Below are positions 4,059 through 8,704 of a stretch of 64,000 nt of DNA, in pieces. Both the position numbers and the translations under genes were made by a program. Every line of letters begins with the position of its first letter. Position 1 is the stretch's first letter. The DNA is from a virus: the IMG/VR virus record IMGVR_UViG_3300046319_000183, one strand, 5' to 3'. The notes beneath the pieces were generated by a model that made no database searches, was not told the origin of the DNA, and saw only the letters and a program-made list of their open reading frames with translations.

Positions 4059-4150
4059 GTCAATTTTTCATAACTAACATACTTCTAACAAAATACAAGT
4101 AACGAATCATCTGGTAACCCCAAATGCTTGTTAGTTAATTTAAAAAATTG
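4059..4150 (+). repeat. stand-alone copy of the tRNA-leader element: GTCAATTTTT fused to CATAACTAACATACTTCTA, with distal arm TGTTAGTTAATTT
   Basis: It shares the GTCAATTTTT and ATAACTA..TACTTCTA boxes with the leaders in front of tRNAs at 5510-8566. Inverted repeat ACTAACA (4075-4081) / TGTTAGT (4129-4135). Confidence 0.6.
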
Positions 4151-4227
4151 TACTATGGGAAATATCTCCTTAAAGGGTTGCAGAAAAGGATATTCTTTTC
4201 TAACTGGATGTTCACAAATTTCAAACC

Positions 4228-4258
4228 GAGGAGTTACGAGAGTAGCTCCTCATTTTTA
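4228..4258 (+). terminator. rho-independent terminator-like hairpin plus T-run
   Basis: GAGGAGTTAC..GTAGCTCCTC stem with one mismatch, followed by ATTTTTAG. Confidence 0.5.
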
Positions 4259-4277
4259 GAAACCAAATTTTATTAAT

Positions 4278-5243
4278 ATGTTTACTATTATTTTATTATT
4301 CTTACTTGTTTTGTTTGTAGCTCTACGTTGGATTCTTTTTAAAAAAGGAATTATTTCTTATGAAGTAAAAGATGATAAACCTTATTCTTCAAAAGTTTTA
4401 AGTGTTAATTCGAAGTATCTCTTTGGCATTATTGTTGTAGCTCTTGTAATTACTTTCCAACCTTTTACTATTGAACGAATAGATTCTGGTGCAGTGGGGC
4501 TTAAAGAAAATCTTACTGGCACTTCTAGAGGTATTCAAGGTGTAGAGTTTGCTTCTGGTTATCAGATTTATAATTCTTACACTCAGAATATTCATGAGAT
4601 TGAAACTGATGCAAAAAATGTTGATTATGGTGAAAGTGCTCTTACTGTAAAAGGTGGATATCCTTGTCCTATACATCTTACATTTAATGTTAAAGTAAAA
4701 CCTAAAAATGCCAATAGATTTTTTGTAGAAGTTAGACAAATGTTTAAACAAGGAGGGTTACCTCATGTTTTAGATACTTGGGCAAAAACATCTATAATGG
4801 GTTCTGCTAATCATGTTGCAAACAGATATGAGCCTGATTACATTTTTAATAACCAGCAAAAGTTTGAAGCTGAGATTTATTCAGAAGTTAATAAAAATCT
4901 TGGAGAATTTTTAGAAGTAACTCAAATGAAGACAAATATTAGACCTTCAGAGGACTTAGCTAAAATTATCTCAGATAAAATAAAGACTATTCAAGAGACT
5001 CAGAATGCAGAACTTAATGAGGTAAAAGCTTTAGCAGTTAACAAAACTAAAGTAGCTAATGCTCAAGGTGATTATGATGCAGCTATACTTACAGCCAAAA
5101 AGAATGATATTTTATCACAACCAAAAATGCTAGAACTGTATAGAGCAGAAACTGAGAGAAAATGGGCAGAAGCTAAAACTTCTCCTTGGGGTACTAATAA
5201 TGTTTTTGGTTCTATGCCTGGAATGTTGCTTCAAAGAAAATAA
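4278..5243 (+). CDS. membrane-anchored protein, possibly SPFH/band-7 (prohibitin/HflK-like)
   Basis: N-terminal TM helix. Central region and C-terminal coiled coil resemble SPFH-domain proteins. Similarity is weak and motif-level only. Confidence 0.4.
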   Translation: MFTIILLFLLVLFVALRWILFKKGIISYEVKDDKPYSSKVLSVNSKYLFGIIVVALVITFQPFTIERIDSGAVGLKENLTGTSRGIQGVEFASGYQIYNSYTQNIHEIETDAKNVDYGESALTVKGGYPCPIHLTFNVKVKPKNANRFFVEVRQMFKQGGLPHVLDTWAKTSIMGSANHVANRYEPDYIFNNQQKFEAEIYSEVNKNLGEFLEVTQMKTNIRPSEDLAKIISDKIKTIQETQNAELNEVKALAVNKTKVANAQGDYDAAILTAKKNDILSQPKMLELYRAETERKWAEAKTSPWGTNNVFGSMPGMLLQRK

Positions 5244-5270
5244 TTTCGTACATTTGTAAAAAATTCTATT

Positions 5271-5504
5271 ATGTGGTTTAACAAAGAGGTAGCACCTAAA
5301 ACAGCTAGACAAAAAGCATCAGAAGCTATATCAGGTTTTGAAAATGCTCAAAAACTTTTACTTGAAGCAAATACTGAACTTGTTGAAGAACAAGCAAAAA
5401 CTACTGCTGAAATTGAAAGATTAGAACTTCAAAAAGTTCAAACTCAAGAGCTTATTGGTAAAAATGCTAGAATAGCTGATAAAATTGGCGAAATCATAGC
5501 ATAA
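5271..5504 (+). CDS. hypothetical coiled-coil protein
   Basis: ORF track. Charged, helical composition. Confidence 0.35.
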   Translation: MWFNKEVAPKTARQKASEAISGFENAQKLLLEANTELVEEQAKTTAEIERLELQKVQTQELIGKNARIADKIGEIIA

Positions 5505-5509
5505 TAAAC

Positions 5510-5582
5510 TTTATGACTACCATACTTCTAAAAACCACAGCCTCACAGGCTGTTACAATAACCATTGGTAGTCAATTTTTTT
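5510..5582 (+). repeat. tRNA leader element copy 1: TTTATGACTACCATACTTCTAAAAA, then hairpin ACAGCCTcacAGGCTGT, then TTGGTAGTCAATTTTTTT
   Basis: Inverted repeat GACTACCA/TGGTAGTC brackets the element. It lies immediately 5' of the tRNA at 5583. Confidence 0.7.
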
Positions 5583-5653
5583 GCAGAAAGTGGTGTAATG
5601 GCAACACGTAAAAGGGAATTTTTAAACTTTAGGTTCGAATCCTAGGTTCTGCA
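5583..5653 (+). tRNA. tRNA-like gene (about 71 nt), atypical anticodon arm; isotype not assigned
   Basis: Acceptor GCAGAAA/GTTCTGC (6 bp plus one mismatch). D-arm GTGT-AATGGCA-ACAC. T-arm TTAGG-TTCGAAT-CCTAG. Confidence 0.45.
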
Positions 5654-5656
5654 CTA

Positions 5657-5715
5657 TTATGATTAAGTTACTTCTATTTTTGATTAAAAATTATTTACTT
5701 AATCAATTTTATCTT
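5657..5715 (+). repeat. tRNA leader element copy 2: TTATGATTAAGTTACTTCTATTTTT ... TTACTTAATCAATTTTATCTT
   Basis: Inverted repeat ATTAAGT/ACTTAAT. The sequence differs from copy 1 but pairing is maintained (covariation). Confidence 0.65.
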
Positions 5716-7098: not shown

Positions 7099-7099
7099 T

Positions 7100-7600
7100 A
7101 TGTATCAACCTACTGACCATAAAATACAAATTAGAGAATTTGTAAAAAATTTTCTAAAAAGTTGTAAAAATGTTTTAACACTACCTAATCTTTATTTTGA
7201 CTTAGAAGAATTTTTAGCAAAAACTGCAAAAGTAGTTTGTTTCGAACAAAATAGAGTAGTGTTTAAACAGCAACAATTAGTAGCTCCTCTTAACGTAGAA
7301 TTAAATTGTGGGAATGTATTAAATGCAGAATCTTCTTTGTATGATGGTATGTTCTTAGATTTCTGTGGCCCTTTTCCTTTTAAACTTTTAAATTTTTTAA
7401 GAAATGTTAAACCAAACTCTAAATTAGTTTTAACATTTTTAGCTGCACGAGAATCAAGAACAATTCAAAAGTTTATAGATATAAGCAACAGACCTCAGAG
7501 TTATGCTCTGCTTTTCAAACATCTAGGATTTAGAACTATAAGCTATGTAGAATATCAATCGGGGTCTCCGATGATTGTTTTTTTTATTATTAAATTGTAA
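7100..7600 (+). CDS. hypothetical protein
   Basis: ORF track. Starts 2 nt after the upstream stop. Confidence 0.45.
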   Translation: MYQPTDHKIQIREFVKNFLKSCKNVLTLPNLYFDLEEFLAKTAKVVCFEQNRVVFKQQQLVAPLNVELNCGNVLNAESSLYDGMFLDFCGPFPFKLLNFLRNVKPNSKLVLTFLAARESRTIQKFIDISNRPQSYALLFKHLGFRTISYVEYQSGSPMIVFFIIKL

Positions 7601-7604
7601 AATT

Positions 7605-7955
7605 ATGTCTATCAAAACACCAGAAAACCTAAAAGGCACAGAAGCCTTTAAATTGTTAGTAAATAACAAAACCCCTCAAGAAAGGGCTTCAGAGTATGTT
7701 TCATCTGTGAAGAGAAAACTTGTTGAAACAGTAATCTCTCCTTTGCAAGACAAAGTAGAAAGTCTTCGTGACAAAATTGCAGACAAAAAAGAGTTTACTT
7801 TAAAAACTGACCATAATCTAGGCTTAAAGCTCATGACTAGAGAAGATGCCACAGCTCGGTTCAAAGAGATTATAGACTTAGAATATGACCTTAAGCTTGC
7901 CGAGCTTGAGTTAGAATGTAAAGTAAAGTCATTTGAAACTTACTTTGGAGCATGA
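7605..7955 (+). CDS. hypothetical coiled-coil protein (start moved to ATG at 7605, just after the upstream stop)
   Basis: The track ORF 7575-7955 overlaps the upstream gene. An in-frame ATG at 7605 follows the TAA at 7598-7600. Confidence 0.45.
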   Translation: MSIKTPENLKGTEAFKLLVNNKTPQERASEYVSSVKRKLVETVISPLQDKVESLRDKIADKKEFTLKTDHNLGLKLMTREDATARFKEIIDLEYDLKLAELELECKVKSFETYFGA

Positions 7956-8500
7956 AATGTTACATTTCTTGTCCGATGTCAATTCCACAATGGCAGCTTG
8001 ATTTAGTTCAAAAACGTCTACAAGATGCTGGTAATGCAGCTGTATTTTGGGAAAGAGGTACAACATATGGTGATAAAGAGAAAAATTGGATTAACACTTG
8101 TGATGCTTTTGTTATAGTGTTGCCTGAATTTGCTTGGCAATATGTAAGAACCAGTCTTCCAAAAGGGTGTAAAACAGAACTAGAACAAGCAGTTTTTCAA
8201 AACAAATCTATTTATATTGCATATAGGACTCAAACAAATAACTCTCTTGCTGTGTATAAAGCAGATCTTTCTGTGAATGCACATATCAGAGGAGTTCCTC
8301 AAACTTATGACTCTTTAGGTCAAAGTAGTTTAAAAGCTATGTCTTTTGAAAAACCAGTAGGAAAGCCTTCCCAATTAATGCAGCTTTCAGAAGTTGTTAA
8401 AATGCATGACACTCTTGAAGATTCAAAAATAGTAGAGTATTGTTGTACATTCGAATTCGAATTTCATTCATATGATAGAAGGCTTCTTCTATTAATGTAA
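7952..8500 (+). CDS. hypothetical protein, weak nucleoside 2-deoxyribosyltransferase-like (NDT-fold) resemblance
   Basis: ATGA overlap. The segment CDAFVIVLPEF...TELEQAVFQNKSIYIAY recalls the NDT/Rcl fold. The call is weak. Confidence 0.3.
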   Translation: MKCYISCPMSIPQWQLDLVQKRLQDAGNAAVFWERGTTYGDKEKNWINTCDAFVIVLPEFAWQYVRTSLPKGCKTELEQAVFQNKSIYIAYRTQTNNSLAVYKADLSVNAHIRGVPQTYDSLGQSSLKAMSFEKPVGKPSQLMQLSEVVKMHDTLEDSKIVEYCCTFEFEFHSYDRRLLLLM

Positions 8501-8504
8501 TAAT

Positions 8505-8566
8505 CTTTATGACTGTCTTACTCCTAATTTTAGTGGATAAAAAACTTAGACAGTCAATTTCTTTAT
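8505..8566 (+). repeat. tRNA leader element copy 5: CTTTATGACTGTCTTACTCCTAATTTT ... TAGACAGTCAATTTCTTTAT
   Basis: Inverted repeat GACTGTCT/AGACAGTC, 8 bp and perfect. Confidence 0.65.
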
Positions 8567-8567
8567 G

Positions 8568-8677
8568 GGAGGTGTAGCTTAATGGTAGAGCGGGAATTAC
8601 TTGGTCAATTTTTATGACTAAGTTACTTCTATCAATTGTTAAATGACCAGATGTGGGTTCGAATCCCATCATCTCCC
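8568..8677 (+). tRNA. tRNA (about 110 nt) with a roughly 39-nt insertion that is itself a contiguous copy of the leader element
   Basis: Acceptor GGAGGTG/CATCTCC. D-arm GCTT-AATGGTA-GAGC. T-arm GTGGG-TTCGAAT-CCCAT. Insert reads TGGTCA-ATTTTTATGACTAAGTTACTTCTATCAATTGTTAAA-TGACCA, bracketed by a 6-bp inverted repeat. Confidence 0.6.
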
Positions 8678-8678
8678 C

Positions 8679-8704
8679 TTTTATGTTAAAATTACTTCTA
8701 TTTT
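8679..8704 (+). repeat. left half of the leader element only (TTTTATGTTAAAATTACTTCTATTTT)
   Basis: Same ATG..TTACTTCTA box. No right-half box precedes the next tRNA-like gene. Confidence 0.5.

Follow-up and report, generated by a model that had tools for sequence, protein, structure and literature searches.

In the 64,000-nt stretch of viral DNA analysed here (the window), which derives from a large phage whose host probably belongs to the Bacteroidota, we found a repeated module that, judged from its sequence, most probably acts as a new signal for cutting and rejoining RNA, i.e. a kind of tRNA intron. To our knowledge, a tRNA intron of such kind has not been described for bacteria or their viruses. 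The more specific reading, that the module serves as RNA-level excision and processing signal and is sealed by the phage's own polynucleotide kinase-phosphatase (Pnkp), two RNA ligases and Tpt1, would deserve about even confidence.

Architecture, covariation and distribution of the module

The window contains 11 copies of the module, all on the gene strand and spanning positions 4067-9232 (Table 1). Each copy has a helix of 8-9 bp formed by the arms A and A', whose sequence is free while pairing is kept by co-variation. One end of the helix is flanked by ..AU/AAUU.. and the other by UACUUCUA; on the DNA, AATT immediately 3' of A' and A-T immediately 5' of A are invariant or nearly so. The motif TACTTCTA was counted 21 times in the window versus 5.5 expected occurrences, and its + strand occurrences are clustered within 4080-9232. 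In the split topology (seven window copies), the order is A-UACUUCUA-spacer-A'. In the contiguous topology (four window copies), it is A'-loop-A-UACUUCUA with a loop of 9 nt, and each of these copies interrupts the anticodon arm of a tRNA (C, D, E and F). The two topologies represent one element, circularly permuted. At least 20 different arm pairs were found. The spacers range from 15 to 73 nt, most of them being A/T-rich stretches of 15-36 nt that lack tRNA content.

A previous sequence-only reading of this DNA had claimed covarying arms and proposed a search for the element in related phages. Copies are present in the contigs L121, L122 and L148, and the covariation was confirmed: in a set of 28 non-identical copies from these contigs and the window 96.0% of the helix cells were paired versus 67.3% in shuffles, with none of 500 shuffles equalling the observed value, double changes at eight of the nine helix pairs, and 24-43% in slid controls. 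A perfect Watson-Crick partner within 100 nt was detected for six of the seven split copies, compared to 0.4-0.75% of positions for a random 8-mer of the window. The four arm pairs quoted earlier were all recovered and are all perfect. In copy 4 (6591-6638), no more than 6 of the 8 positions pair, and its hybrid arms combine the L122 type with the L121 type. The two mismatches are tolerated in most strains, and in strain L117 8/8 pairing is regained. The possibility that the arms were copied from acceptor stems was rejected.

All 38 copies on four contigs have the orientation of the genes and none of them lies inside an ORF. Seven helix cells are G-U pairs on the + strand, whereas two would be G-U only if the - strand were used, and strain variants bring further G-U pairs. 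Since the arms of split copies are 20-80 nt apart, helix pairing requires a single strand; real covariation therefore means selection on single-stranded secondary structure.

Split copies stand as leaders before tRNAs, although not before every one as had been stated: tRNA F (9165-9271) has none in the window, and copy 6 (8680-8795) encloses tRNA-Leu(AAG) at 8712-8782 as its 'spacer', the ordinary 3' acceptor strand of which is weak and overlaps A'. The tRNAs merely follow split copies, which equally precede terminators and ORFs (4155-4259 and 8798 in the window, 12709 in L122, 609 and 1956 in L148), and the proposed location of tRNAs at the junction of a repeated element was thus abandoned. 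Positions 4059-4089, formerly taken for a contiguous copy, reached 24 bits versus 54-61 bits for true copies and lack a paired arm, and relatives read GCCAGTTTTT; what lies here is the left half of split copy 0, preceded by a box that arose by chance or is degenerate. The internal hairpin of copy 1 is present, one base away from the position first given.

Table 1. Module copies, interrupted tRNA genes and RNA repair genes in the window
Feature	Position	Strand	Details
Split copy 0	4067-4145	+	A AACTAACA 4072-4079, motif 4080-4087, A' TGTTAGTT 4129-4136 then AATT; downstream 34-codon ORF 4155-4259 and terminator 4228-4251
Split copy 1	5510-5582	+	A GACTACCA 5515-5522, motif 5523-5530, A' TGGTAGTC 5566-5573; spacer hairpin 5537-5553; before tRNA A (5584-5652)
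Split copy 2	5656-5713	+	A GATTAAGT 5661-5668, motif 5669-5676, A' ACTTAATC 5697-5704; upstream of tRNA B (5716-5800)
Split copy 3	5895-5956	+	A AACTAATC 5900-5907, motif 5908-5915, A' GATTAGTT 5940-5947; before tRNA C
tRNA C	5963-6071	+	Leu-CAG call after in silico splicing
Contiguous copy in tRNA C	5991-6028	+	38 nt, between positions 29/30, 56 bits; TATTT + TCTCAGTT + AATTCTAAT + AACTGTGA + TACTTCTA
Split copy 4	6586-6647	+	A GACTATCT 6591-6598, motif 6599-6606, A' AAACAGTC 6631-6638; before tRNA D
tRNA D	6649-6757	+	Asp-GUC after splicing
Contiguous copy in tRNA D	6677-6713	+	37 nt, between positions 28/29, 61 bits
Split copy 5	8506-8564	+	A GACTGTCT 8511-8518, motif variant TACTCCTA 8519-8526, A' AGACAGTC 8548-8555; before tRNA E
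tRNA E	8568-8677	+	Asn-GUU after splicing
Contiguous copy in tRNA E	8594-8631	+	38 nt, between positions 27/28, single deletion-scan solution, 61 bits
Split copy 6	8680-8795	+	A GTTAAAAT 8685-8692, motif 8693-8700, A' ATTTTAAC 8779-8786
tRNA F	9165-9271	+	Insert in anticodon loop
Contiguous copy core in tRNA F	9200-9232	+	TCTTAGTT + AATTTTAAT + AACTATGA + TACTTCTA, 59 bits
Tpt1/KptA RNA 2'-phosphotransferase	14216-14713	+	Possible remover of the junction 2'-phosphate
Nucleotidyltransferase	25287-25991	+	CCA-adding or poly(A) polymerase type
RNA ligase	41430-42053	+	PF09414; candidate sealing enzyme
Pnkp	43644-44417	+	Closest to Capnocytophaga Pnkp1 (PDB 4xrp); candidate end-healing enzyme
Second RNA ligase	46473-47774	+	PF09414 and OB domain; candidate sealing enzyme

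Interrupted tRNAs and RNA repair genes

The earlier description of the element as inserted into tRNAs is correct for the contiguous copies, and the tRNA at 8568 indeed carries one, but four window tRNAs are interrupted in this way (5963, 6649, 8568 and 9165). The inserts comprise 37-41 nt and end exactly at the motif; those of tRNAs C, D and E split the 5' strand of the stem of the anticodon arm. In silico removal of about 38 nt up to the motif end resulted in canonical tRNAs for Asp, Asn and the CAG anticodon. The predicted junctions include ACACAGTT/GCATCAGG, ACGCT/CTCCTGTCAC and GAGCGG/TCAATTGTTAA. For tRNAs C and E, an exhaustive deletion scan gave one best or only solution with a 5-bp stem, a 7-nt loop, U33 and R37, which ends exactly at TACTTCTA; the boundary in tRNA D is identical. 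ARAGORN with default settings called the spliced products as Asp-GUC, Asn-GUU, Leu-CAG, Trp-CCA and Gly-UCC and missed the unspliced interrupted genes. The L122 ortholog of tRNA C has a CCA (Trp) anticodon. For tRNA F, the deletion scan yielded no loop with U33, and its mature loop may be C-R-U-U-G-G-A. The distance from the helix to the predicted 3' cut varies: it is 8 nt for tRNAs C, D and E of the window and 10-11 nt for the L122 ortholog of C, and for F it is 8-13 or possibly 5 nt.

Comparison of sequences shows that selection maintains the cloverleaf of the interrupted tRNAs. For tRNA D, compensatory changes were found at 11 of 22 pairs, including 28-42, 29-41 and 30-40 on either side of the junction, and for tRNA F at 5 pairs. 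The stem ATTGT/ACAAT of tRNA F co-varies with CCTGT/ACAGG in relatives. The insert position 28/29 of tRNA D is kept in L121, L122 and L148, although the tRNA-Asp of L148 is very different and this contig is unrelated, its ORFs having no similarity to the window. The permuted acceptor pairing of the window tRNA-Leu is 7/7, yet it is reached by 29% of shuffles and is not statistically significant. In L122, a homologous hairpin is kept with a U-G to C-G change.

The genome has a full set of genes for RNA healing and sealing (Table 1); a cREC domain (cyclic-phosphate-processing) and a Thg1-like protein are also encoded in the window. RNA repair genes are common in phages, where they counter host anticodon nucleases, and their presence here is therefore not specific to splicing. 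Among the approximately 69 of 94 window ORFs scanned, no RNA endonuclease was recognised and there was no match to tRNA_int_endo. The nuclease adjoining Pnkp belongs to the NUMOD3 homing-endonuclease family.

The processing signal, one of several options named in the sequence-only reading, is the one favoured here, and from it we infer RNA-level excision, the cut positions and the acting enzymes. The module would be recognised as single-stranded RNA with a helix of approximately 8-9 bp, 5'-AU / AAUU-3' on one end, and a short U-rich 5' linker together with the invariant 3' tail UACUUCUA on the other. In the contiguous topology, the linker, A', the 9-nt loop, A and UACUUCUA would together form an intervening sequence that interrupts the anticodon arm with about 38 nt. 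An endonuclease would make two cuts, one where the linker begins and one where the UACUUCUA tail ends, the exons would remain together as a nick within the anticodon helix, and the heal-and-seal enzymes of the phage (Pnkp, RNA ligases and possibly Tpt1) would rejoin them. The CCA end, which none of the tRNAs encodes, would be added later. In the split form, cleavage at these points would free the spacer and part the upstream from the downstream RNA, and the copy would act as processing site. Several observations speak against this reading: no endonuclease was recognised in the ORFs scanned, the distance between helix and 3' cut varies, tRNA F gave no loop with U33, copy 4 tolerates mismatches, and there is turnover at the DNA level (see below). 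The identity of the motif in L148, moreover, could indicate a host factor, e.g. RNA polymerase, instead.

Alternative explanations

A repeat cassette acting at the DNA level could shuffle tRNAs and ORFans, with the copies inside tRNAs as selfish insertions. It would be a small unit, either mobile or recombinogenic, and comparable to a MITE or to the PeSLs found in T4-type phages. We consider this unlikely, and RNA-level removal may hold as well. The region is plastic, with HNH genes, ORFans and tRNA orders that differ among the window, L121 and L122, varied tRNAs following the same leader, and the same module occurs in a contig without shared genes. A whole split copy of about 52 bp at L122 12700-12755 is missing at the same L121 site; this polymorphism and the hybrid arms of copy 4, a matched pair in one strain, show DNA-level turnover. 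Also, known PeSLs flank ORFans and recombine into mini-circles (PMC2839356). However, neither a transposase nor a recombinase was found among the ORFs scanned, the module has no sigma-70-like or Bacteroidota-like promoter consensus, and arms 20-80 bp apart form no compact GC-rich terminator, only AATT and no T-run being conserved after A'. All copies share one strand, and arm covariation would be unexpected for plain homologous-recombination targets. A recombination site, as suggested previously, is compatible with the indel and the hybrid arms but leaves the structural selection on the interrupted tRNAs unexplained. Compensatory evolution is kept across the insertion point, so even then the insert would have to be neutralised in the RNA.

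It is quite improbable that TACTTCTA is a -10-like box for a phage sigma factor or RNA polymerase and A' a part of the structured 5' leader of small genes and tRNAs. The invariant 8-mer, followed by A-rich sequence, does lie 35-105 nt upstream of tRNAs and ORFs, for every interrupted tRNA an ORF starts within about 110 nt of the internal motif, and the motif is identical in the otherwise unrelated L148. But TACTTCTA matches neither TATAAT nor TAnnTTTG, an arm A that lies upstream of the start would be unable to pair with A' in the transcript although the arms co-vary, and copies are restricted to 5 kb, whereas the window spans 64 kb and has approximately 94 genes. The promoter option of the earlier reading is further weakened by copies within tRNA genes, as a promoter has no evident use inside the anticodon stem of four conserved tRNAs, and by two L148 copies that run directly into terminator hairpins, which fits an RNA element better. 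Very improbable, finally, is a module that is never removed and acts as extra arm or as decoy or sponge RNA, e.g. as anticodon-nuclease bait or as mimic of a CRISPR-repeat hairpin with an 8-nt handle. The sequence CUUCUAA is identical to the anticodon loop of tRNA-Arg(UCU), and the hairpin is followed by exactly 8 conserved nt as in class 1 CRISPR repeats. Moreover, the phage makes a heavy investment in tRNA repair, and atypical anticodon loops, in which position 33 is a purine, occur in several of its tRNAs. Against such a role, arms vary between copies while CRISPR repeats do not, spacer lengths range widely, and the insert in tRNA F splits the anticodon loop, so that decoding is impossible in its presence. 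The 3' exons hold intact canonical anticodon loops matching known identities, which argues for true decoding tRNAs.

Comparison with known systems

In Archaea and Eukarya, protein-spliced tRNA introns are cut by the EndA/Sen endonuclease at a bulge-helix-bulge (BHB), i.e. two 3-nt bulges on opposite strands with a 4-bp helix between them at the exon-intron junctions, and are then ligated. Like these, the module provides intervening sequences of tens of nt in the anticodon arm without a ribozyme fold, a single structural motif serves cis introns as well as permuted or processing topologies, and heal-and-seal enzymes including Tpt1 are encoded in the genome. Unlike in BHB introns, both junctions fall on the same strand of the anticodon stem (27/28 to 29/30) and have a 4-6 nt linker and the 8-nt motif beside them without a 4-bp central helix, recognition would use an intron-internal hairpin and the invariant 8-mer, and the carrier is a phage of bacteria with no EndA homolog in the ORFs scanned. 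Group I introns contain a conserved P3-P9 ribozyme core that takes up at least about 200 nt. They likewise interrupt the anticodon arm of bacterial and phage tRNAs and are accompanied by homing endonuclease genes nearby, but the inserts found here are far shorter, lack a P1-P9 fold and interrupt the stem instead of the loop in three of the four tRNAs; an Rfam search (E<=5) gave no match to an intron or ribozyme family. MITE and IS200-IS605-type elements are moved by a cognate transposase and show fixed terminal repeats as well as a target-site signature, whereas here no transposase domain was detected in the scanned ORFs, the arms differ, and there is no consistent duplication beyond the A/T-rich TTTAT. 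CRISPR repeats are near-identical in sequence with uniform spacer length, and neither an array repeat nor a solitary unit agrees with the many arm pairs and variable spacers.

Circularly permuted or split tRNA genes are known from Cyanidioschyzon, other algae, Thermofilum and Nanoarchaeum (PMC3978253). As in permuted pre-tRNAs, split copies place the 3' part of the 'intron' upstream and its 5' part downstream of a segment, and the spacer at L148 1630-1683 has permuted content (T-arm, 3' acceptor strand, linker and 5' acceptor strand, i.e. the top half only); the sole full tRNA in a spacer, the window tRNA-Leu, is in normal order, however, and most spacers have no tRNA content. The PeSL cassettes of T4-type phages combine a repeated intergenic box with a stem-loop and serve as promoter/stem-loop units (PMC2839356). 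Their sigma-70 promoter has no counterpart here, with no excess in a consensus scan and no match in the modules, and neither has their compact terminator stem-loop, the arms of split copies being 28-94 nt apart. Like PeSLs, the module is a repeated intergenic conserved box with a stem-loop, the region around it is plastic and holds many ORFans and homing endonucleases, and its copies bear signs of recombination (the indel between L122 and L121, the hybrid arms and the changes in tRNA order). Unlike in PeSLs, the arms co-vary and enclose the box together with a long spacer, and copies reside inside tRNA genes.

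Copies, pairing and arrangement of the module

The whole window was scanned on both strands for the 8-mer motif with at most one mismatch, an arm pair of at least 7/8 and AATT after arm A'. This yielded only ten copies, plus copy 4 with 6/8 paired positions, all located between 4072 and 9232 on the + strand, which also encodes every gene of the region. The motif TACTTCTA itself was observed 21 times in the window (5.5 expected), its + strand copies being clustered at 4080-9232. A perfect partner within 100 nt is found for a random 8-mer at 0.4-0.75% of positions, compared with six of the seven split copies. 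Including the related phage contigs L121 and L122 and the 2.7-kb metagenome contig L148, the module is present in 38 copies, and 38/38 lie on the gene strand.

Across the 28 copies that are not identical, pairing of the 9-bp helix reaches 96.0% versus 67.3% in shuffled sequences (0/500 reached the observed value), while slid-register controls gave 24-43%. Double changes were found in 8 of the 9 helix pairs, along with 21 further pair types. Seven G-U pairs form on the + strand versus two compatible only with the - strand, and strain variants add new ones, such as A8617G of strain L116 in the hairpin of the tRNA E insert. Two linked changes in strain L117 bring copy 4 (window 6591-6598) back to 8/8 pairing. 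Three parts are invariant: arm A is immediately preceded by A-T and immediately followed by TACTTCTA, and A' is immediately followed by AATT. Thus, the covarying arms noticed in the sequence-only reading are real, as shown by the pairing excess and the clustered + strand copies, and the observation could be extended.

Two arrangements were distinguished. The split form, with seven copies in the window, consists of TTTAT, A, TACTTCTA, a spacer of 15-73 nt, a 5-nt linker, A' and AATT. The contiguous form consists of a 4-6 nt linker, A', AATTnnWAT, A and TACTTCTA; the window has four of these, each within a tRNA. With a covariance model of this form, the tRNA inserts of the three genomes scored 54-61 bits, compared with only 24 bits at 4051-4087. 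The further contiguous copy proposed at 4059 is therefore not a true one, since its arm is unpaired and the site is not conserved in relatives. The interpretation given in the sequence-only reading was partly supported. Split copies are not tRNA-specific and also stand before ORFs and terminators (see table). A putative sRNA after copy 0 turned out to be the 34-codon ORF with its terminator, and a PHROG scan of the ORFs within the array was uninformative. Rfam searches of 3900-9400, at the gathering threshold and at E<=5, matched no family of ribozymes, introns or sRNAs. The window was also searched for a guide RNA that could pair with UACUUCUA; TAGAAGTA sites occur within ORFs only.

Features of the tRNA array and associated genes (window coordinates unless a contig is named; a slash in an arm marks the insertion point)
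Feature	Coordinates	Strand	Remarks
tRNA A	5584-5652	+	Rfam tRNA model
tRNA B	5716-5800	+	Rfam tRNA model
tRNA C	5963-6071	+	Rfam tRNA model; unique 5-bp solution, 38 nt removed, ends exactly at TACTTCTA; arm GTT/GC AUCAGGA GCAGC
tRNA D	6649-6757	+	Rfam tRNA model; two 5-bp solutions, one with boundary at TACTTCTA; arm CT/CTC CUGUCAC GAGAG
tRNA E	8568-8677	+	Rfam tRNA model; single solution, boundary at TACTTCTA as in C; arm G/TCAA UUGUUAA AUGAC (CUGUUAA in L121)
tRNA Leu-AAG	8712-8782	+	Rfam tRNA model
tRNA F	9165-9271	+	Rfam tRNA model
Copy 0			precedes 34-codon ORF
Copy 6			encloses tRNA-Leu, precedes ORF 8798
Split copy, L122	12709		precedes DUF7873 gene
Split copies, L148	609 and 1622		terminator hairpins immediately after
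RNA repair and tRNA maintenance genes	14216-14713, 21606-22025, 25287-25991, 40876-42053, 43644-44417, 46473-47774, 48348-49919
Homing-endonuclease-type genes	3511-4053, 6129-6572, 39709-40134, 42800-43528		HNH, HNH_2, SegE-like GIY-YIG, PD-(D/E)XK of a NUMOD3 family

Interrupted tRNAs

ARAGORN with default settings detected two of the seven window tRNAs found with the Rfam tRNA model between 5584 and 9271; an encoded CCA end is absent from all of them. As the ARAGORN intron search returned mutually inconsistent intron positions and anticodons, we instead used an exhaustive scan in which each possible single deletion in the stretch separating the D and T stems was tried. The structure sought had one base at position 26, 5 bp in the anticodon stem, U33 and R37 in a loop of 7 nt, and a variable loop of 4-5 nt. 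In the solutions for tRNAs C, D and E, the insert interrupts the anticodon stem on its 5' strand, at 29/30 (C), 28/29 (D) and 27/28 (E). The restored loops of D and E are the textbook Asp and Asn loops, and all constructs spliced in silico were called as normal tRNAs by default ARAGORN.

After in-silico splicing, the D sequences of four contigs share a cloverleaf, 11 of whose 22 pairs show compensatory changes. Among these pairs are 28-42, 29-41 and 30-40, which flank the insertion point. In L148, tRNA-Asp has a strongly divergent sequence, and its insert is nonetheless at 28/29 as in window D. For tRNA F, five compensatory pairs were found, 27-43 and 28-42 among them. The interrupted tRNA genes are not decaying. 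Since the stem of tRNA F encloses the insert, the insert of this tRNA lies in the anticodon loop, and no single deletion in the scan yields U33 or a canonical loop. In the window, the loop that remains once the 33-nt core is removed is C-R-U-U-G-G-A; the relatives give this loop if 3 nt 5' and 3-5 nt 3' of the core are taken out as well.

This loop of tRNA F would have R33. A purine in place of U33 is also seen in tRNA A (loop GGGAAUU) and in the L121 ortholog of Leu-AAG (L121:15496-15566; loop UGCAUAA). The anticodons of orthologous tRNA bodies differ between the window and L121/L122 (C, CAG/CCA; D, GUC/UCC; Leu, AAG/CAU), suggesting fast anticodon switching among close relatives. A second, different kind of small insert is present in tRNA B, with 12-13 extra nt in the anticodon arm and no motif; in the tRNA at the equivalent place (L121:11306-11384), the anticodon loop contains a UGCC-UUCG-GCA hairpin. 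L122 encodes an uninterrupted tRNA with the amber suppressor anticodon CUA (L122:11490-11562), missing from the window, which hints at stop-codon recoding in this phage group. Alternative precursor folds would arise from complementarity of 7-9 bp to arm A plus the motif start, formed by the 5' exon end ACACAGUU of pre-tRNA C (5972-6018) and by the D-arm AGUGGCUAA of pre-tRNA D (6662-6709).

Copy 6, with 8/8 paired arms, encloses a tRNA of possibly permuted order. The ordinary 3' acceptor strand of Leu-AAG is weak (three Watson-Crick pairs, two G-U pairs, two mismatches) and overlaps A', and TATTTTC just after the copy 6 motif pairs 7/7 with the 5' acceptor strand. ARAGORN accepted the permuted construct; the pairing alone is not significant, being equalled in 29% of cases when the T-rich 30 nt upstream are shuffled. 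The idea is kept alive by two relatives. At the homologous place, L122 has only the hairpin TCTCC-TTCG-GGGGA with a U-G to C-G change. In the L148 spacer at 1630-1683, the order is permuted: a clear T-arm (ATCGG TTCGACT CCGAT) runs directly into a 3' acceptor strand, which a linker of 5 nt separates from its matching 5' strand. We regard a permuted tRNA as doubtful; its predicted circular Leu junction would be AATCTCATTATTTTCCGC.

Relatives, host and neighboring genes

The window, which is identical to JGI contig Ga0456299_000002 (77 kb), comes from a large phage genome rich in A+T. No near relative was found among deposited phages, and a protein-based search of IMG/VR gave none either. A Bacteroidota host is suggested because SPFH homologs are present in Bacteroidota genomes and the window Pnkp is closest to Capnocytophaga Pnkp1. 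L121 and L122, with an SPFH protein 90% identical to that of the window, both carry the module, while the more distant relatives L123 and L126 have neither motif nor tRNAs near the SPFH gene. Searches of IMG/VR with the leader pattern gave chance matches only, the match in contig L059 being a coding repeat, and the intron pattern gave only weak chance matches (<=23 bits) in IMG/VR and GTDB genomes. A metagenome scan revealed L148 as the single true relative. This contig is otherwise unrelated and shares no genes with the window; no second contig carrying its ORF was found, so it could not be extended.

Between the HNH and SPFH genes of L123 (9040-10000), about 24 head-to-tail units of 38-40 nt each contain TTTGAATT together with a TAxxTTTG-like box, a combination that recalls the -33/-7 promoter elements of Bacteroidota. 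About 900 nt of non-coding sequence at L123:12380-13320, clearly higher in G+C than the surroundings and without Rfam match at the gathering threshold, may be a large structured RNA. Four free-standing homing-endonuclease-type genes are present in the 64-kb window, two of them within the tRNA region. The thymidylate synthase ORF (37184-38374; 396 aa) matches the Pfam model in two separate stretches, suggesting an insertion in this gene.

Proposed excision from RNA and comparison with known systems

The arms of split copies are far apart and yet covary; therefore, the selected structure forms in a single strand, and strict co-orientation with transcription together with the G-U asymmetry points to + strand RNA. 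Since the interrupted tRNAs are still selected and anticodon loops are intact, the simplest reading is removal of the module from the transcript. An RNA-level excision and processing module would thus be the best explanation, to which we give an even chance. Excision would leave the exon ends as a nick within the anticodon helix, with predicted spliced junctions CACAGTTGCATCAGGAGC (C), AATACGCTCTCCTGTCACG (D) and AGAGCGGTCAATTGTTAAATG (E) and, for example, the intron-circle junction TGATACTTCTATATTTTCTCAG. Identical cuts in split copies would release the spacer and part upstream from downstream RNA, which would make intergenic copies processing sites. Sealing could be carried out by enzymes encoded in the window, namely a T4/Capnocytophaga-type Pnkp, two PF09414 RNA ligases and Tpt1, besides a cREC cyclic-phosphate-processing domain, a CCA-adding-type nucleotidyltransferase, YqeY and a Thg1-like protein. 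This RNA repair and tRNA maintenance set, which also includes a phosphatase-like protein, is unusually complete. NAD-related genes are present as well (NAPRTase and a PARP-like protein in the window, NADAR just upstream in L111).

Several points weaken the excision reading: the helix-to-3'-cut distance of the inferred cuts is variable, RNA repair genes would be expected as plain counter-defence too, and tRNA F lacks canonical restoration. No RNA endonuclease for the module was recognized in the scanned ORFs, about 69 of the 94 in the window. The TnsA/Endo I-like protein adjoining Pnkp (42800-43528) was rejected as splicing nuclease; it belongs to a large NUMOD3 family and is most likely a DNA homing endonuclease. 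As the motif is identical in L148, which shares no genes with the window, it could be read by a host factor.

At the DNA level, a PeSL-like recombination or regulatory cassette would fit the plastic neighborhood, an indel that covers an entire copy (L122 versus L121), and copy 4, whose arms are hybrid but form a matched pair in one strain. We consider it unlikely, given arms that covary over long range, a single orientation of all copies, conserved insert-bearing tRNAs still under selection, and modules in which a consensus scan found no promoter. Both readings may coexist, with spread at the DNA level and neutralization at the RNA level, and even as a cassette, the element would be unusual for repeatedly entering the anticodon stem of tRNAs that survive the insertion. 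A phage-specific promoter is improbable: arm A would go untranscribed, some copies lead directly into terminators, and copies are limited to 5 kb of the window. Very improbable is a retained arm or decoy RNA, against which stand the canonical loops of C, D and E and the split anticodon loop of F. A tyrosine-recombinase core site or integron attC was rejected, as an integrase was not found in the ORFs scanned and the half-sites flanking split copies are not conserved.

Carried further, the excision reading tentatively leads to a phage-run, enzyme-dependent system that cuts and ligates RNA at a hairpin plus UACUUCUA and removes introns from anticodon stems, while the permuted signal processes intergenic RNA and matures circularly permuted tRNA-derived segments. 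Archaeal/eukaryal tRNA splicing and the permuted-tRNA pathway would then have a viral counterpart in the bacterial domain, with tRNA function reliant on phage repair enzymes. Small enzyme-dependent tRNA introns are regarded as an archaeal and eukaryotic trait, and the tRNA introns of bacteria and their viruses known to us are self-splicing group I or group II ribozymes. Our literature search turned up no report of a permuted tRNA or of a small intron other than a ribozyme from bacteria or phages, nor any mention of the 8-mer motif. To our knowledge, the only role proposed so far for phage sets of Pnkp, RNA ligase and Tpt1 is to repair tRNAs damaged by the host; if the 38-nt inserts are excised and the exons resealed, these sets would gain a constitutive substrate. 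Standard tRNA finders would then undercount phage tRNAs, and the module would offer a new RNA recognition signal, compact and with a programmable helix, to study and perhaps to engineer.

Judged by the defining features of the families tested, the module belongs to none of them and is not assignable to any known family. It differs from group I introns in size and in having no Rfam match, from T4-type PeSLs (PMC2839356) in lacking a promoter and a compact terminator, from MITE/IS200-type elements in its variable ends and in that the ORFs scanned include no transposase, and from CRISPR repeats in its variable arms and spacers. In function, it would most resemble protein-spliced tRNA introns and BHB processing sites. 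The BHB motif serves as one signal for cis-intron and permuted topology in archaea and some algae (PMC3978253), and the module likewise occurs in both cis-intron-like and permuted topology; unlike BHB introns, it has no bulge-helix-bulge, and both its junctions lie on one strand.
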